64,000 nucleotides of DNA from Bradymonadia bacterium (GTDB lineage: Bacteria; Myxococcota_A; Bradymonadia; UBA7976; UBA1532): positions 448,001 to 512,000 of the forward strand of contig JBKAGE010000035.1 of NCBI GenBank assembly GCA_046290225.1, written 5' to 3'. Below, piece by piece: positions 7,101 through 54,073 of this stretch. The notes below the pieces were generated by a model. It had not been told where the DNA came from and made no database searches. It saw only the letters and a program-made list of their open reading frames with translations. The translations under genes were made by a program, and so were the position numbers. How positions within the stretch are numbered: position 1 is the stretch's first letter; every line of letters begins with the position of its first letter.

Positions 7101-7574
7101 GTGGCCAATCGACCCGGACGCAATGACCCCTGCCACTGTGGCAGTGGCTTGAAGTACAAGAAATGCCATCTCGCTGCCGACGAGGCTGCTGCCGCTGCGG
7201 CGCGGAAGGCGGTTCAGGTCGAGGCGGAGCCCGGGGCACCCTCCATCACTCAGGCTGCACCGATGAAGACCGTGGAAGATCCCACGGTGAAGACTGCGGT
7301 GCTCATCGGCGCAGCGTCGTTGGTGCTGGCCATCGTCGTGGGCATCATGACCGACGCTTCGACGGGCTTCACCATCGCCGGTGCCGGTGGCCTGATCGCA
7401 CTGCTCTATGCGGGCCTGCGCAACCCGCCTTCACCTCACGAGAACCCCGGGGATCCGGCGGCGCTCAACTTCGGCATGTCTGGCGATGGGCAGGACGACG
7501 ATCAGCAGGGGGCACAACAGCCCCAGGTCCGCCGGCGCCCTCAGGGCCCTCGGCCACCGGCTCGCCGTCGCTGA
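7101..7574 (+). CDS. SEC-C motif membrane protein
   Basis: PGRNDPCHCGSGLKYKKCH followed by two hydrophobic helices. Confidence 0.85.
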   Translation: MANRPGRNDPCHCGSGLKYKKCHLAADEAAAAAARKAVQVEAEPGAPSITQAAPMKTVEDPTVKTAVLIGAASLVLAIVVGIMTDASTGFTIAGAGGLIALLYAGLRNPPSPHENPGDPAALNFGMSGDGQDDDQQGAQQPQVRRRPQGPRPPARRR

Positions 7575-9096
7575 CCTGCTCTACAGCGAACATCCGCTGT
7601 ACGTCGTGCATGATCTCCGCATAGATCGCCGGCGGCAGATCACCCAGTGGGATCAAACTGCGATCGTCGGCCCGCCGTGGAGACGGAAAGTCGTTGTGGG
7701 TGATGGCACTGGGTTGATGCTGCAGGCAGTAGAGCCACTCGACGTCATCGGTGGCCTCGCTGGTGCGCACGACGACGTCGATGGCCCCCGAAGGCCCTGG
7801 CAGCGTGCGCACCCACCCCACGTGCCACCCCATTCGCAACACTGAAGTCCATGGCCCGCCTGCGAAGGCCTCAGGGCGCTCATGGATGTCTCGCCATCGA
7901 ATGCCGTCGAGCCCTCGGTAGACCCGTGATCGCTGCAGGTGGCTCGGGCATGTCTCCATGGGCCGGCCGAGCTGATCGAAGGGCGCTTGGAGGTCGTGAT
8001 ACTCGAAGTGCGCTTGCCACAACCCCACGATCTCAGCGTCAAGGCGGGCAGGGTGAGCGGGGCGTACCCATGTGTGCGGGGTGGTGAACAGCTCGTCATC
8101 TACATTGATGAGTGCGCCGTCCTCTCTGGGTCGGAACGTGCCGACAGGCTGGCCACGATCGTCGAGCGCGGTCCACACCATGTGCCGAGCAGGGCACGCT
8201 CTGAGGGGGTGGTGCAGCATATGGGCGGTGAACCCGCCGGCAGACCACACACGGCCGGAGAGGGTGGCATCTCGGAGTCGGGTACAGATGACTTCGAACG
8301 TGGCGCTCGCTTGATCGGACAACGCTTTGATCCGAGCGCGGTGGCCAGATGAGCCACGGGTGGTGGGGGCGGCGTCGACAGGCTCGCCTTCGAGCCACCA
8401 TCGTAAACCTTTGGGGCTCACGGGCATGGCCTCCACCAGAGGCGGACGCTCCGACAGCCGCCAACGCTGGTCTTGGATGTTGATGGTGGGGGTGGCGTGG
8501 TCGAGCAAGGTGCCGATGGCCACCCGTCGCGCCTGGGCCGCAGCCTCGAGGTGGCCCATGATCGCCTCTGCCAGGGACCTGCGCTGAGCGTCACGAAGTG
8601 TGGGGTAGAGGGCGCCGAGGGCAAAAATGGGCCCCCGTGCATCCGGGCGGGCGGTGATGGCAGCGCCCAGGGCGTCGATGGCGAAGGCGGCCAGTCGACC
8701 CCGCCGCCGTCGGGCCCAACGCAGGACCAGTGGGCAGAAATGGGTCAGCAAGAGTCCGGGGCTCGCCAACGCAGCACAAGGGATCAGCACGAACTTGTCC
8801 CTGACGTCGGCCCCTGCTTTCTGGAACCCTTCGAGCAGGGCTTTGACGAGCAGATCTGCGCCATCGGGCTCGAGCAGAGGCAGACAGCGCGCCAGCGGAT
8901 CACACACCTCGGCCTGGGCCTCCCGTGCCTGAGCGTCGAGCAGCCATGTCAGGACCATCTCCGGCATCAGAAAGCCCGAGCGCCACCCTGGTGTGGGCAA
9001 CGACTCGGGATCGAGCCAGTGTCTGATCTGCGCCTTTACGGGCGCTGCACTGGCTTCCATCACCAGCGCGTCGATGGTCTGTTGGGCGTCGAGCAT
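7465..9096 (-). CDS. DUF4132-domain protein
   Basis: HHPL...MVW...FRPREDG...VRPAHP...W..HF....L.APFDQLGR pattern; RBS GGAGG before ATG 9096. Confidence 0.75.
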   Translation of the reverse strand: MLDAQQTIDALVMEASAAPVKAQIRHWLDPESLPTPGWRSGFLMPEMVLTWLLDAQAREAQAEVCDPLARCLPLLEPDGADLLVKALLEGFQKAGADVRDKFVLIPCAALASPGLLLTHFCPLVLRWARRRRGRLAAFAIDALGAAITARPDARGPIFALGALYPTLRDAQRRSLAEAIMGHLEAAAQARRVAIGTLLDHATPTINIQDQRWRLSERPPLVEAMPVSPKGLRWWLEGEPVDAAPTTRGSSGHRARIKALSDQASATFEVICTRLRDATLSGRVWSAGGFTAHMLHHPLRACPARHMVWTALDDRGQPVGTFRPREDGALINVDDELFTTPHTWVRPAHPARLDAEIVGLWQAHFEYHDLQAPFDQLGRPMETCPSHLQRSRVYRGLDGIRWRDIHERPEAFAGGPWTSVLRMGWHVGWVRTLPGPSGAIDVVVRTSEATDDVEWLYCLQHQPSAITHNDFPSPRRADDRSLIPLGDLPPAIYAEIMHDVQRMFAVEQVSDGEPVAEGPEGAGGPGAVVPPADRRPAHRQTCRS

Positions 9097-9127
9097 GTGA
9101 TCCTCCATTCAGGCAGTGATGTGCCTT

Positions 9128-12100
9128 TCAGGTGACGTGTTGCGCGAGGGCGTCGAGTTGAGCCACGAACCGGCTCGCAGGGCGATGCTGGGCACGGCGA
9201 TGTACCACCGAGACTGTGCGCGCGATGGCCGCTCGATGACGATCGATGAAACCTGGCCCCCGATCGTTGTCGGCGATCAGGGTGGTGACGGCGTCGAGGG
9301 TGGCGAAGGCCACACCGGGGTGCCGTCTGAAGACGCCAGCCACCAGCCCCGCCTCGAGATCGGGCAGCGCCCCGCTGGGTGCGGCGAGCAGCGTGTCGGC
9401 GATCCAGCCCACCACCTCTTCAGGCCGCCGACGCGCTTCGTCGTCGAGGGCGAGCAACAGATGACTCTGCAGCAAGGTGAGATGGGCCGCGTCGAGCATG
9501 TGCACGACGGGGCCGAGGGTGCCTCGACCCGTGGCATGGTGCTCGATCCACCCGCTGAGGGCCTCGATCAAGGCAGGTTGATCGGGTGAAGCTGTCAGCT
9601 GGGCGGCGATGAGGGCCACGGCACCTTCCATGCCGTCCTGGCTCCAGCCTCTCTCGGGGCTGAGATCGCCTGCTGCGCGCTCCAGGGTGCCTGTGAGCTC
9701 ACCGGCCTGGGCAAAGGGCACCAGACAGTTGAGGTAGGCCGGCCGCGAGAAGTCCCATCGGGCCCATCCGTCTTCATCGAGGGCGTCGAACCGCTCGGCG
9801 ATGAAGGTGGCCAGCGCGCGTGGATGCTCGGGTGCGCCCAGATGCACGGCGAGGCCGCCGGTGAGCACATCGCTCTGCCGAATGTGACTCGCGAGGCTCA
9901 ACCAGTAGAAGCCCGGCCCGTCGGCATCGGCGATGAGGCACTCGGCGAGGTGTCGGGCCAACAACTCAAGGGTGCCCTCGTCGAGAACCCCATGTTGGGC
10001 ATGGCCGATGAGCCAACGTTGCAGATCGTGTCTGAAGGCGGTGCCGCGGCGACGATCTGCTTGAGCGAGGGCCAGGAGAATGCGCACTCGATCCTGGTCG
10101 ACCGCCATGGGCTGACCTGGTGGATCGAGCAACGACAGATGCATCGACTGCAGCGGGCTCGGGCCGTCGAGATGCCGATCGATCCAGCGACGCACCACCT
10201 CGAACCGTTGCTCCGGCTGCTCGGGCCAACGTCCCAAGGTCGACCAGGCGTGTAGCAAGTGGCTGCGGACCTCAGGATAGGGGGTGTGCATGAGCCAGTG
10301 ACTCAGCGGCTCGCCGAGGGCCTCGATGCAGAGCGTACGGTGAGCGGCGCCTTCCGAGCCCACCAGCTCGTCGACGCGACCGATCATCCACCGCAACAGC
10401 GCCGCGAGCCCACAGGCGTATCGCCCAGCGCCTCGACCGCTCGCTGGGGCGCCAGAGACCGTGCGGTCGGGCAGGCCGTCGAAGCCACCGTCAGCGAGGC
10501 GGGCGGCGGCGAATCGGGTGAGCGTCTCTGTGTCGAGCAACCCGCGACGCCAGGCGCCGTCGAGCAGACGGCTGCGCTCGCGGATCAACCGCTCACCTTC
10601 GAAGGGCAACGTGATCACGATCACTGCCATCCAGGGCACCGAGTCGGGGTTGCGGCTGTTGGCTTGCACCACCGTGGCCCAGAGATCGTCGAGCGTCTCG
10701 GGGCTCGGCCCCGTGAAGAGCGCCCCTCGGGCCATCTCTTTGAGCAGGGCCAATACGCTCCGTACAGGCCCGCGCTCCGGACGCGCGGCGCGCTCAAGCA
10801 GCAGCTGGCCCGCCACGCGCTCGAGGCGCTCTCGGTAGAGGTGGCTCACGGGCCAGTCCCAGACACCGCCACCCACCGCTCGGATGAGGTGCAGATATCG
10901 GGTGGAGGCCACCTGAGCCTGGGGTGATCCTTCCGGGCCCTCGGGCTGGCCGATCAGGCGCAGACGCTCCGCTGCTTGTTGTGTCAGGCCCGGCTGGGCA
11001 GACAAGATCCCGTGAAAACTCAACATCGTGAGTCGGTCGAGATCAGCGCTGAGGGCACCGTCATGATGGGTCCAGCGATCCACCATGCGTCGACACATCG
11101 ACACGGGGGCCAGCAGACAGATCAACAGCTGTCCTCGCGCCCTCAATGCAGGATCGAGGGCATCGAGCATTTGCACTGGCTGATCTGCGAGGCGTTCGAT
11201 GGCTTTCAAGAGGCGAGCGCCGTTGTGTCGGGCGCTCAACGGATCAGCGCCAGAGGGTCGAGGCTCGGGGAGTGCGGACAAGGCCGAGATACGCAGCGCG
11301 AGATCGGCACAGAGCACTGCATCTCCAGGGGCCAGGGCGTCATCGTCGAGCAACGCGTCGACCTGCTGGGCCACTGCACACCATGGAGGGCGCTCGAGCA
11401 CGAGCCCACCTGCAGACCAGCCGTCCACTCGAGCCACAGCCCGAAGCGCGTTGTGATCGAGGGGATCAGCTTGGGTGATGTCGTGCAGACCTCTGCGGCC
11501 TACCCGACCTGCGGGGGGTGGCTCTGCCTGACGTTGCATGTGCAACATCTCGTCGAGGACCGCAGTGATCTTCTGCTCAGGGCCCAAATCCGAAGGTTGA
11601 GCAGAGAGATCGATGAGATCGACACCGCGTTGACGCCAATAATCTCTTTGAGTGGCCGAAGTGCGCAGATGCAGCGACCACGCCATGGGTACATCGTCGC
11701 CCAGCCGTTGACGGACCCAGTCCTGGATCGCCCTGAAGGCCGGATCGTCGAGGCTGAAGCCCACGAAGAGCACCCGCGACTCCACGAAGCAGCGGGTGAT
11801 GAAGACCTGGATCAGGCGGTGCCGCTCGGTATAGGCCAGAAAATCATCCCCGGAGATCACGATGTCTGCGGGGTTGCGTGCGAGGCAGCCGTTCATCTTG
11901 ATGATGCGGGGTGGCTGTCGAGGGCGGGCCAGATCACGGCCTTCGGTGACCACCTGAGGCACGATGTGGGCTTGCTCGAAGGCGCGCTCGAGCAGAGTGT
12001 CGAAGTTGGTGGTGATGATCTCCTGGAAGTTGAGCTCCACCACCCGGTCGTGCACCGCCCCCGGGATGTACTCAGCGTCGGGGATCGCCCCCATCACGGC

Positions 12101-12391
12101 GTTCACCAGGGCGTTGCGACCACGGGCTGCACGGAAGTAGTCGGCGATGCGCAGCGCGTCCTGCTCTTGAGCCAGATCGTCTTCGAGGCCAGCGCGGAGC
12201 TTCTCCACCAGTGACCACCAGCCTGGCAGGCGCTGATGACCACCATCTTTGCGCTTGGCGTTCATCGACAGCCCTGCCCCAGCGAAGAGGACCACTCGCC
12301 CACGGGCGAGCTCGGCCCCCAGCTCTCTCAGAGAGGCGCGCCCCTGGGCGTCGACGAAGTCGAGCATGGGTGTCTTGGTGGGGGTCGTCAT
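9128..12391 (-). CDS. SIR2-like (SIR2_2) domain protein with ~800 aa helical C-terminus; candidate defence protein
   Basis: VVLFAGAGLS, IITTNFD, IIKMNGC, VLFVGFSLDDP. Confidence 0.85.
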   Translation of the reverse strand: MTTPTKTPMLDFVDAQGRASLRELGAELARGRVVLFAGAGLSMNAKRKDGGHQRLPGWWSLVEKLRAGLEDDLAQEQDALRIADYFRAARGRNALVNAVMGAIPDAEYIPGAVHDRVVELNFQEIITTNFDTLLERAFEQAHIVPQVVTEGRDLARPRQPPRIIKMNGCLARNPADIVISGDDFLAYTERHRLIQVFITRCFVESRVLFVGFSLDDPAFRAIQDWVRQRLGDDVPMAWSLHLRTSATQRDYWRQRGVDLIDLSAQPSDLGPEQKITAVLDEMLHMQRQAEPPPAGRVGRRGLHDITQADPLDHNALRAVARVDGWSAGGLVLERPPWCAVAQQVDALLDDDALAPGDAVLCADLALRISALSALPEPRPSGADPLSARHNGARLLKAIERLADQPVQMLDALDPALRARGQLLICLLAPVSMCRRMVDRWTHHDGALSADLDRLTMLSFHGILSAQPGLTQQAAERLRLIGQPEGPEGSPQAQVASTRYLHLIRAVGGGVWDWPVSHLYRERLERVAGQLLLERAARPERGPVRSVLALLKEMARGALFTGPSPETLDDLWATVVQANSRNPDSVPWMAVIVITLPFEGERLIRERSRLLDGAWRRGLLDTETLTRFAAARLADGGFDGLPDRTVSGAPASGRGAGRYACGLAALLRWMIGRVDELVGSEGAAHRTLCIEALGEPLSHWLMHTPYPEVRSHLLHAWSTLGRWPEQPEQRFEVVRRWIDRHLDGPSPLQSMHLSLLDPPGQPMAVDQDRVRILLALAQADRRRGTAFRHDLQRWLIGHAQHGVLDEGTLELLARHLAECLIADADGPGFYWLSLASHIRQSDVLTGGLAVHLGAPEHPRALATFIAERFDALDEDGWARWDFSRPAYLNCLVPFAQAGELTGTLERAAGDLSPERGWSQDGMEGAVALIAAQLTASPDQPALIEALSGWIEHHATGRGTLGPVVHMLDAAHLTLLQSHLLLALDDEARRRPEEVVGWIADTLLAAPSGALPDLEAGLVAGVFRRHPGVAFATLDAVTTLIADNDRGPGFIDRHRAAIARTVSVVHRRAQHRPASRFVAQLDALAQHVT

Positions 12392-12762
12392 GGCCGACCT
12401 CCCAGCACCGCCAGCAGCTGCCGGGCGTCTTCTGCAGCTTCACGCTTGGTCACGATGGCTGAGGGGCGGACCCCCGCCGTCATCATCCGGTGGATGTGAT
12501 CCGCACTGGCACCGTACTTGGTGTAGAACGCCACGGGGATCTGCGGATCAAAGGCCTGCAACCAGGCCAGTACCTGAGGCCCGGCAGGCTCCATCTCGAA
12601 GTCGAGCACCACACCATCAGGGCGAAAGTCGTCGAGGAGCGCCCGCAAAGTCTCTTCGCTCTCCACCCAGCACAGCGACTCCACAGCGTGGCCGTCCCGG
12701 CCCAGGTAGAGCGCCAGGCGCTCGCTGGTGTCCGGCTCGTCGTCAATCAACAAAATGCGCAC
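12388..12762 (-). CDS. Single-domain response regulator receiver
   Basis: ILLIDDE, VVLD, FYT, TK signature; 4-bp overlap with the SIR2 start. Confidence 0.85.
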   Translation of the reverse strand: MRILLIDDEPDTSERLALYLGRDGHAVESLCWVESEETLRALLDDFRPDGVVLDFEMEPAGPQVLAWLQAFDPQIPVAFYTKYGASADHIHRMMTAGVRPSAIVTKREAAEDARQLLAVLGGRP

Positions 12763-27157: not shown

Positions 27158-27799
27158 ATGATGTGGAAGAAGTTGGTTGTGTTCTCGGCAGCGTCCCTGA
27201 TGGTACTCGGCTGCGATGCCATCGATGAGCAGGATGAAGCGTCCACTGACGAGGCGTTGAACGTGGGGGTGAGTGAGAGTGCTCTATTCGACCCCAATGA
27301 TTGGGACCGTGATGGCCTGACCAATGCTGAGGAGCGCCGACTGGGGACCAACCCTCGCCGGAACGATACTGATGGTGATCGAGTAGGCGATGGTCTTGAG
27401 GTGCTCAGGCTCGGAACTGATCCGCTCGATCGTGATACCGACGATGATCAGCTCAGTGATGGTGTGGAGTTTAGAACTACGGGCACAGATCCCCTCAAGT
27501 TCGACAGTGATGGTGATCGCATGGGTGATGGCAGAGAGGTGAACCGTCTCGGGACCGATCCGCTCGACCCAGACACGGATGGGGATCAGCTCGATGATGG
27601 TCGAGAGGTAAGGGAGACGCGTACTGATCCTCTGAAGCGAGACACCGACGGTGATCGTCTCGGGGATGGCCGTGAGGTGAATCGTATCGGCTCGAATCCT
27701 CTGGTGTACGACACCGATGGAGACGGTGTTTGTGATGGTGACGAGGTCAGAGCTGGGAGCGATCCGCTCGATCCGAACAGCACGCCTTGGAACCCCTGA
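27158..27799 (+). CDS. Lipoprotein with ~7 DxDxDG calcium-binding (bacterial thrombospondin type 3-like) repeats
   Basis: Lipobox VLGC; ~23-aa repeats DTDGDxxGDGxEVxxxGTDPL; RBS AGGAG. Confidence 0.85.
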   Translation: MMWKKLVVFSAASLMVLGCDAIDEQDEASTDEALNVGVSESALFDPNDWDRDGLTNAEERRLGTNPRRNDTDGDRVGDGLEVLRLGTDPLDRDTDDDQLSDGVEFRTTGTDPLKFDSDGDRMGDGREVNRLGTDPLDPDTDGDQLDDGREVRETRTDPLKRDTDGDRLGDGREVNRIGSNPLVYDTDGDGVCDGDEVRAGSDPLDPNSTPWNP

Positions 27800-52279: not shown

Positions 52280-54073
52280 ATGACGATCAACCTCCCGAGC
52301 CCTCTCGTGGATGCCGTCTCGCGAGGTCAGTCAGTGCTCTTCGTGGGGGCGGGTTTTTCCCATGGAGTCACCGGCCTCAATTGGAATCAATTGCTCGAAC
52401 GTTTACGGGACAGGCTCCCTGACGGTCGGGGCTGGGCAGGCCTCGACGCCCTCGACAAGGCTCAGCTCTTCGTGCAGGCCCATGGCCGGCGCAGCCTCGA
52501 GCGTACCCTGGCGGGCATGCTCCCGGGGCCCACAGCGCTGAGGGGGTGCGTCACCGACGTGCACCGAGCCCTCATCAACATGCCGTTTCCGGTCATCGTG
52601 ACCACCAATTACGACGGCCTCGTCGAGGCCACCCTCACCGATCTCGACATCCCCTTTCGGGTCATCGTCGACAATGACGAGGTGGCCGAGGCGGCTTCGC
52701 TGCAAGACGATGTGCGCCTGGTGGTGAAGATGCACGGTGATCTGTTGCTCGGCGACACCATCGTGCTCACCCGAGACGACTACCTGAACTACGAGGTGAC
52801 CCGCCCAGCCATGGTCACGCTGCTCAACAGCCTTCTGTTGAGCAGGCCCTTTGTGTTCTACGGTTTCGGGCTGAGCGATCCCAACTTCCACCTGATCTAC
52901 CACGCGGTGATCCAGCGAAACGCTCGGGGTGGCCGGGCCTTTGCCCTCATGAAAGAGCCCAACGATCTCATGGCCCGCTATTGGGCCGGCCGTGGTGTGA
53001 CGCTGGTCTCGGGGCCTACCTACACCGCCCTCGAAGAGATGATCCGCACGCTGCACGACGAGGTGCGGCGGCTGCAGTCCGCAGAGTGGGATCTCCCCAC
53101 GGTGCTCCGGGCCCACTTCGGCGACGACAGCGACGAGGTGGTGCAGATGCTCGACGCGGTCCAGCGCCGTTTCAGCGAGCGCATTCGGCGCTTTGCCCCG
53201 CTGCTCAACCCTGATCCCAACACGGGGCGCCGGCCCCCGATGCCCGACGCCGCTCGAGAAGAGATCCTCGGGGCGTTTCGGGCGCTGAAGGCGCTGGTGA
53301 AGGCGGGCTGCCCGGTCTCACCGGCCACCTTGCATCATGCCGGTGATTTGCTGGCGCGTCTGGCCTTATACGAGCCTGCCCGAGAGGCTCTGGAGCTGGC
53401 CATGGCCCTCACGCGCCGTACAGGGCTCAAGGCCACCATTGCCCTGCGCAGCAGCCTGGGCCGGGTGCTCAGCCGCCTCGGGGCCTATGATCGGGCCCAG
53501 GTGTATTTGGAGCGGGCCCTTGAGGAGGGTGATCCCGATCGACCCTGGGATCGTCTCGCCGAGTTGTCGTGGCTGTGTCGCTGTGTGCAGGCCCGCATCG
53601 ACTATCTGCACCGTAGCCATCGGCCTGCTGCGGCAGCAGAGGTGCTCATGGCCTTCATCGATCGACACTCCGGCTGGCTGCCTTTGCTCGAGGGTGCCCC
53701 TCCAGAGGGCGACGAAGCGCACCACTGGGCAGCGTATTACGCCAACCATCGTATGGGCTGTTTGAGGGCCCTCGCTGCAGAAACGCTCTCGGTGCATCCC
53801 GAGGTCCATGCCCGGCTGGCCATCGAGTTCCTGGTCCGGGCCATCGCCATGGCGCCTCACAAGCGGGCGTCGTACGAGCGGGTGCGGCCGCTGCTGCTCG
53901 AGTCACGGCATCTGCCGCCCGATCGTCATCGGTGGACCCAGCTGATCGACGGCGCGCCCCCAGAGGTGCGCCTCGAGCTGAAGGCCTCAACCCCGAGCGT
54001 ACAGCTGAGATCGGGTCTGGGACTCGGCTTCGGTCACGATGCTGGGGCCCAGCCTCATCCGCAGCGGTCCTGA
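52280..54073 (+). CDS. SIR2-like (SIR2_2) domain protein with TPR-like C-terminus; candidate NADase
   Basis: VLFVGAGFS, IVTTNYD, VVKMHGD, FYGFGLSDPN; TPR-like SLGRVLSRLGAYDRAQVYLERAL; RBS AGGAG. Confidence 0.88.
   Translation: MTINLPSPLVDAVSRGQSVLFVGAGFSHGVTGLNWNQLLERLRDRLPDGRGWAGLDALDKAQLFVQAHGRRSLERTLAGMLPGPTALRGCVTDVHRALINMPFPVIVTTNYDGLVEATLTDLDIPFRVIVDNDEVAEAASLQDDVRLVVKMHGDLLLGDTIVLTRDDYLNYEVTRPAMVTLLNSLLLSRPFVFYGFGLSDPNFHLIYHAVIQRNARGGRAFALMKEPNDLMARYWAGRGVTLVSGPTYTALEEMIRTLHDEVRRLQSAEWDLPTVLRAHFGDDSDEVVQMLDAVQRRFSERIRRFAPLLNPDPNTGRRPPMPDAAREEILGAFRALKALVKAGCPVSPATLHHAGDLLARLALYEPAREALELAMALTRRTGLKATIALRSSLGRVLSRLGAYDRAQVYLERALEEGDPDRPWDRLAELSWLCRCVQARIDYLHRSHRPAAAAEVLMAFIDRHSGWLPLLEGAPPEGDEAHHWAAYYANHRMGCLRALAAETLSVHPEVHARLAIEFLVRAIAMAPHKRASYERVRPLLLESRHLPPDRHRWTQLIDGAPPEVRLELKASTPSVQLRSGLGLGFGHDAGAQPHPQRS

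Follow-up and report, generated by a model that had tools for sequence, protein, structure and literature searches.

A receiver-sirtuin gene pair of a Bradymonadia bacterium and its giant histidine kinase: apparently an undescribed immune or signalling module under kinase control

The window analysed here is a 64,000-nt stretch of contig JBKAGE010000035.1 from a Bradymonadia bacterium (GenBank assembly GCA_046290225.1; 8.58 Mb, 99% complete, hereafter genome G000). On its minus strand it carries a gene for a stand-alone receiver domain (REC) followed immediately by a gene for a large sirtuin. An earlier note, made from the letters of the window alone, had read these two genes and the next one downstream, which encodes a DUF4132 protein, as an operon for a phosphorelay-gated defence or conflict system. 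The open reading frames (ORFs) and Pfam domains confirmed three co-directional genes with the following features (all coordinates are those of the window).

12762-12388, minus strand: stand-alone receiver (REC), P0001, 124 aa; Pfam Response_reg, E 1e-10
12391-9128, minus strand: sirtuin, P0002, 1087 aa, SIR2_2 domain (residues 124-260, E 1.1e-23) followed by an alpha-solenoid tail
11522..12340, minus strand: SIR2 domain of the sirtuin, residues about 18-290; GAGLS and TTN(F/Y)D (N129) motifs intact
11885..11899, minus strand: KMNGC motif of the sirtuin, with Asn167 at the catalytic-His position, then Gly and Cys169
9131..11494, minus strand: helical tail of the sirtuin, residues 300-1087; conserved family-wide, putative REC-docking or sensor region
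9108-7465, minus strand: DUF4132 gene, 547 aa (542 aa from the second ATG); PF13569 at residues 252-385, E 2.3e-21

The stop codon of REC and the start codon of the sirtuin overlap by 4 bp as ATGA, and GGAGG precedes both starts. The DUF4132 gene begins 19 bp (first ATG) or 34 bp (second ATG, with GGAGG ahead) after the sirtuin stop, the latter fitting the distance of about 30 bp given before. Because the genes are co-directional and tightly spaced and each has a ribosome-binding motif, co-transcription of the three in the host is plausible, and the same features are what could be cited for a kinase-independent REC-sirtuin-DUF4132 operon with DUF4132 as its working member. However, PF13569 was found in none of the nine other sirtuin-bearing genomes tested, among which G698, G705 and the closest (68% identical) relatives were not included, and a tblastn search for DUF4132 gave no match across 14 loci. 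The host moreover has three further DUF4132-like genes, and its genome does contain a kinase of the appropriate type, merely displaced, so that a kinase-less reading fails. We therefore consider the three-gene operon largely refuted and very improbable; the REC-sirtuin pair stood as a unit, whereas DUF4132 was rejected as a member of the module, and annotating the third gene by adjacency would have chosen wrongly. Scans for promoters and terminators gave results no better than chance. No RNA run containing the sequence was listed; two DNA runs have a small share of it as short contig pieces, of which one covers 9042-9222 without mismatch and is not independent support. The 3' end of the DUF4132 ORF overlaps that of a convergent SEC-C-motif gene by 110 bp (7465-7574).

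The conserved third gene is instead a histidine kinase of about 1,900 aa with C-terminal HisKA and HATPase_c domains (Pfam). No histidine kinase adjoins the three genes within the window, as had been noted, but a cognate-type kinase lies on contig C5 of the same host. Four sirtuin-family loci from named genomes belong to three Acidobacteriota (one titled Thermoanaerobaculia) and one Aminicenantes, none of them with DUF4132. Three of these four have a receiver just upstream of the sirtuin and an ORF of about 1,900 aa beside the receiver; in the fourth, kinase-receiver and sirtuin lie on two contigs whose ends share 19 identical bases, which join into the same ATGA junction. The kinase was eventually found in 13 genomes (G000, G041-G044, G303, G698, G705, G707, G929, G956, G959 and G967). 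The sirtuin is present in 12 of these 13, and conversely all 12 sirtuin genomes have the kinase; the remaining genome is G303, in whose assembly no sirtuin was found. When only the kinase was used for discovery, the sirtuin was found in 6 of the 7 genomes, with a collinear run in 5. One family of 24 genomes has the kinase in four and the sirtuin in three, all three within the four, and in another family of 72 genomes the sirtuin occurs in four and the kinase in those same four. Four additional pairs of proteins have contigs of equal length in the protein database (kinase/sirtuin at lengths 112428 and 32223, REC/sirtuin at 27677 and 31062), which is no more than suggestive. Because these counts include non-independent kin and many of the assemblies are fragmentary, we attach no p-value to the co-occurrence.

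Gene order tells the same story. REC lies directly ahead of the sirtuin in all 10 genomes whose assembly includes the beginning of the sirtuin gene; G698 and G705 are outside this count, having only the 3' part of the sirtuin at contig starts (the G698 tail was detected by a lineage-specific profile). Kinase, REC and sirtuin are collinear in eight genomes, and the kinase gene adjoins a REC-family gene in 12 of 13, the exception being the host, where the REC-sirtuin pair is in the window and the single kinase orthologue is apart on C5 (G000:C5:70843-76461, or L189:6844-12462), 382 bp off the contig end and with no receiver after it. In G042 the kinase is divergent from REC-sirtuin, and there are two extra receivers and a second kinase. 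Kinase, REC and sirtuin thus very probably constitute one functional unit, and the phosphorelay link proposed in the earlier note has become much more plausible now that a dedicated kinase accompanies the sirtuin in all 12 carriers.

A few further observations concern the surroundings of the kinase. The host kinase is flanked by secreted or lipoprotein-like genes, with a short tandem GGCACG repeat after it, near the contig end. Both in G303 (L224) and in G042 (L030) the kinase lies by thiolase, enoyl-CoA hydratase and aldolase genes, with REC-sirtuin in between only in G042; from this difference, REC-sirtuin seems to behave as a cassette that is gained or lost. The sirtuin-less kinase-REC copy of G042 has a 1180-aa Ser/Thr kinase-AAA ATPase directly upstream (G042:C25, L201:63-3605), which could serve as another input or output.

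The predicted domain order of the kinase is a beta-propeller, helices, a second beta-propeller, a helical region and HisKA-HATPase; a structural model of the first 1,000 residues (pLDDT 77.9) showed the propeller, helices and propeller. The highest 19-residue hydropathy does not exceed 1.59 in any of 12 sequences, meaning no strongly hydrophobic segment, and the kinase is predicted to be cytoplasmic and membrane-free. The phospho-His (H1654) and the ATP-binding N, G1 and G2 boxes expected of a two-component kinase are all present, with H1654, N1770/N1774, D1802-G1804-G1806 and GLG invariant across four orthologues. The H-box reads HNL in 10 of 12 sequences and HEL in two, so the residue after the His is Asn in 10 and Glu in two. 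An ESM Atlas search with the kinase gave generic kinase matches only. The receiver likewise has the acidic pocket, phospho-Asp, Thr and Lys of two-component receivers. The full phospho-acceptor set seen earlier is indeed there (D7, D8, the phospho-acceptor D54 with its codon at 12601-12603, T81 and K106), and all three Asp residues and the Lys are invariant in seven orthologues. Proteins of this REC family are 121-140 aa long, have neither a wHTH (winged helix-turn-helix) nor another output domain, and were found only at loci of the kinase/sirtuin module.

Next to the kinase and receiver stands a distinct sirtuin family. Among 1.84 billion representatives searched, 17 proteins with lengths of 1,042-1,251 aa matched at E < 1e-100, well ahead of generic SIR2 matches, and 22 full-length family rows align end to end with the window sirtuin at 25-68% identity. 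The 28 family rows group as a single clade (support 90) when 58 SIR2 domains are placed in a FastTree phylogeny. A second subgroup, with two members from Aminicenantes-family genomes, has the same tail (profile comparison probability 99.2% over 650 columns). When generic SIR2 patterns were used, at least four family members were among the 80 genome loci listed, and none of the 80 metagenome loci listed matched past the SIR2 domain. No relative of the sirtuin was found in the viral contigs searched, and an ESM Atlas search with the tail returned nothing usable. The AlphaFold model (mean pLDDT 85.6) has a Rossmann head up to about residue 290 and only helices beyond, in agreement with the long helical C-terminus that had been described for this 1087-aa protein.

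Among solved structures, ThsA and DSR2 come closest to the sirtuin. DSR2 is the top full-length Foldseek match (1086 columns, E 6.6e-15), with a TM-score of just 0.27-0.30, and the SIR2 domain alone superposes on DSR2 at about 3.2 Å (PDB 8wyd and related). All family-model matches are confined to the head: the NCBIfam Dsr2 model scores 118.6 against a cut-off of 1400 and covers residues 21-265 only, the ThsA-model match covers residues 21-242, and PADLOC, one of the checks suggested at the outset, gave a Dsr2-like match limited to residues 18-264. Profile comparison of the tail with 15 Dsr2-like proteins (four PADLOC-confirmed, the others chosen by length) yielded probabilities of 0.9% and 3.5%, that is, no detectable homology. 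The window sirtuin has the build of DSR2, yet is not a DSR2.

The active site sets the family apart. All 22 rows have GAGxS, T-x-N-x-D (with N129), K165, G168 and C169 without exception; N129 aligns with DSR2 N133, and residue 167 aligns with DSR2 H171 and with the ThsA His. At this position the 28-row clade has Asn in 25 members and His, Ser and Ala in one each, and Asn-Gly-Cys is present in 32 of 36 rows. In contrast, non-family SIR2 matches keep the His in 117 of 121 cases, with HGC in three (the count leaves out 12 rows without a readable motif). The conserved Asn-Gly-Cys looks, as far as alignments can tell, like selection rather than decay. Since the catalytic His is replaced by Asn, NAD+ depletion in the canonical sirtuin manner is doubtful, and the chemistry is likely to be non-canonical. 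Published mutants point in the same direction: in the consulted parts of the respective papers, NADase activity is lost when the equivalent His is point-mutated in Sir2-HerA (PMC11514289) or changed to Ala in SPARSA (PMC10781750) and KomC (PMC13454610), and FAM118 activity is abolished by mutating the His (PMC12700824). A His-to-Asn mutant has been deposited for KomC (PDB 9xvc, titled KomC(H146N)) and is presumably a substrate trap; no publication on this mutant was found among those listed. Against these data stands the reading as classical abortive infection, in which the sirtuin would be a potent DSR2/ThsA-like NADase despite Asn167, licensed or guarded by kinase and REC, and NAD+ would run out. 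It can draw on the DSR2-like overall plan, on the invariance of N129 and GAGxS, on the His kept in one clade member and in G929, and on the role of the SPARSA His, given in the available text as water gating, not chemistry (PMC10781750). Asn at the His position in three PADLOC Dsr2-like proteins fits it too and, like the G929 sirtuin, argues against regarding the site as simply dead. All in all, we judge a classical NADase to be quite unlikely.

The three Dsr2-like proteins (P0081, P0095 and P0101) make up a small clade of their own, with an independent His-to-Asn replacement. The G929 sirtuin (L252:8521-12076), from the sole sampled genome that keeps the His, is split in two frames of 520 and 694 aa, which could reflect either a genuine interruption of the gene or a fault in the assembly. 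The window itself contains a second SIR2_2 gene (52280-54073, plus strand; 597 aa) with a TPR tail and the catalytic His kept (KMHG); SIR2 proteins of similar size (526-751-aa frames) occur in 11 of 40 host relatives, and a third host copy is on C56.

How does the module relate to systems already described? The DSR2 system consists of one gene, and what sets off its NAD+ depletion is a phage tail-tube protein, whereas the window-family sirtuin travels with REC and kinase. The two share an N-terminal SIR2_2 domain and a long helical C-terminal region; a full-length family-model match and a homologous tail are lacking in the sirtuin, and of the Asn-His dyad (N133, H171) only the Asn is kept. ThsA is a SIR2 domain fused to a SLOG domain and is accompanied by TIR partner genes, unlike the sirtuin, whose tail is all-helical and whose flanking ORFs, chosen heuristically and some of them in the wrong frame, contained no TIR among those scanned. 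With ThsA, SPARSA, Sir2-HerA and KomC the module has in common a SIR2_2 domain under the control of a partner or signal, but in those the catalytic His is needed, and they are paired with TIR signals (ThsA), an Argonaute (SPARSA), HerA (Sir2-HerA) or KomB (KomC) and with no phosphorelay. SirTM also has an amide residue in place of the catalytic His, although it is Gln there and Asn here. SirTM is not known to have a solenoid tail, and the 14 PDB matches to the sirtuin include no SirTM chain. As far as the available text shows, it has Gln137 for the His, keeps the upstream Asn and ADP-ribosylates a small protein from its own operon (PMC4518038). That operon has a macrodomain and GcvH-L, neither of which was seen in the flanking ORFs scanned. 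The likeness to SirTM is analogy, not descent.

Ternary conflict systems of multicellular bacteria have an NTPase as switch and beta-propeller sensors. They are portrayed as sporadic multi-gene modules with receiver domains and with SIR2 among the effectors, and in the accessible portions of the two papers the receivers come without histidine kinases (PMC7159879, PMC8195603); in the module described here a histidine kinase is part of the conserved core. The cRec domain of PMC9503650, judging from the part of that paper available, is unrelated. The nearest precedent is Ambrosia, in which, according to the accessible text, a histidine-kinase-like protein and the receiver phospho-site D60 are required for protection, with a REC-wHTH put forward as the transcriptional regulator of a methylase and an HNH nuclease (bioRxiv 10.1101/2025.09.30.679545). 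The present module differs in its single-domain REC, its double-propeller kinase of about 1,900 aa and its sirtuin effector, and no Ambrosia partner (XRE, methylase, HATPase, REC-wHTH, HNH nuclease cluster) was adjacent in the flanking ORFs scanned. In the full-text literature, mostly outside subscription journals and with supplements excluded, a search for sirtuins combined with a histidine kinase or receiver and for His-less defence sirtuins brought up no description of the trio, and one for DUF4132 brought up unrelated papers. The former result is in line with the earlier remark that the arrangement was not recognised from described systems. The module thus lies outside DSR2, Thoeris, Ambrosia and SirTM and, by its build, resembles a regulated DSR-type system.

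From these comparisons we consider the following mechanism. The propellers and helical repeats of the kinase would sense a macromolecular cue inside the cell, with an invader protein or complex as the likeliest candidate, and the kinase would set the phosphorylation state of D54 in REC. Having no DNA-binding part and being translationally coupled to the sirtuin, REC would act by docking on the alpha-solenoid and so switch the SIR2 head. The output of the head may be ADP-ribosyl transfer or a slow, gated NAD+ turnover, as in the His-less SirTM, rather than bulk hydrolysis of the ThsA/DSR2 type, and the whole would serve a regulated counter-invader response. We put this chain forward tentatively: a three-protein phosphorelay with a non-canonical NAD+-dependent sirtuin output and a counter-invader role is, taken as a whole, somewhat short of an even chance. 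A more specific form, namely a two-component immune receptor whose double-propeller kinase senses invader proteins and whose CheY-like REC switches a sirtuin performing Asn/Cys-based ADP-ribosyl transfer, seems rather unlikely.

The distribution of the module bears on its purpose. The conservation of neighbourhood that had been proposed as a check holds for REC-sirtuin, which is kept across carriers, but it does not extend through the host phylum: among 401 genomes of that phylum the kinase turned up in 1, the host itself, and a full-length sirtuin was not found in 40 host relatives, every match stopping short of residue 290. In one order the kinase is present in 8 of 300 genomes. At class level around G041, 2 of 251 genomes matched, these being G041 and one weak match (E 1.1e-4, 541-aa frame) that was not counted. 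Such a patchy distribution favours an accessory conflict role. Near the sirtuin of G041, a vWA-CoxE and AAA ATPase gene pair is convergent on it (L029:13651-16336, minus strand), with no counterpart seen in the other loci.

Several observations weigh against a phosphorelay-gated conflict role. The GC content across the locus (0.63-0.69) is the same as in the remaining window. Most of the genes around the module have metabolic functions (aspartokinase, thiolase, enoyl-CoA hydratase, aldolase, sugar epimerases, deformylase), and 20 more flanking ORFs gave housekeeping Pfam families or nothing. PADLOC on 72 flanking ORFs produced four specific-looking defence matches in three loci, none of them adjacent (PDC-M08B, PDC-S01 and a type II methylase together with its nuclease), while the remaining matches were common domains such as kinase, ThiF, AAA ATPase, methyltransferase and SEC-C; the flanks are thus not defence islands, and this absence counts against a conflict role. 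Kinase and REC also occur without an adjacent sirtuin, in G303, which has no sirtuin at all, and in the second copy of G042, so that other outputs are conceivable for the kinase. The prevailing HNL H-box lacks the acidic residue after the His that CrdS requires for kinase activity, although this rule is not general across kinase families, as stated in a later preprint (bioRxiv 10.64898/2026.02.27.708494). Finally, since Ser, Ala and His are tolerated at position 167 (3 of 28), decay would fit as well as new chemistry.

Some of these points suit a different reading, a non-defence signalling device in which a catalytically dead sirtuin scaffold that binds NAD+ or ADP-ribose works within a kinase-REC relay. 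It would feed in redox or energy state, or else take up the relay's signal for a decision on development or stress in bacteria with large genomes, and information may flow from the sirtuin to REC rather than in reverse. The housekeeping neighbourhoods speak for such a device, and so do the loss of the catalytic His in 27 of 28 clade members with invariant NAD-binding motifs, the survival of the unit when split (G000) or rearranged (G042), the kinase-REC pairs that are duplicated or alone, and the genome size of the carriers, all 13 assemblies being 6.3-10.7 Mb. On the other hand, the nearest solved relatives of the SIR2 domain are anti-phage proteins, the module is absent in most of the close kin searched, unlike core signalling, and Asn-Gly-Cys looks selected. 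We hold non-defence signalling to be somewhat unlikely, and a purpose in defence or conflict to be slightly favoured.

Whichever purpose it serves, the kinase-REC-sirtuin set has the look of a kinase-gated module for immunity or signalling that has not been described before, rare but conserved, scattered across bacteria and endowed with an unusual sirtuin active site. Its kinase is an unusual cytoplasmic sensor of about 1,900 aa with two beta-propellers. The switches of known anti-phage sirtuins are phage proteins, nucleotide signals, Argonautes or ATPases. To these, a conserved unit of kinase, receiver and sirtuin would add His-Asp phosphorylation, by which an NAD+ enzyme would be switched directly and reversibly. 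The family-wide His-to-Asn replacement with its adjacent Cys, kept among sequences of no more than 25-40% identity, suggests that the sirtuin binds ADP-ribose or transfers it, rather than destroying NAD+. If the immune reading is true, a post-translational His-Asp relay would act directly on an immune enzyme, and the sirtuin would perform a chemistry of which the SIR2_2 family has so far offered no example.

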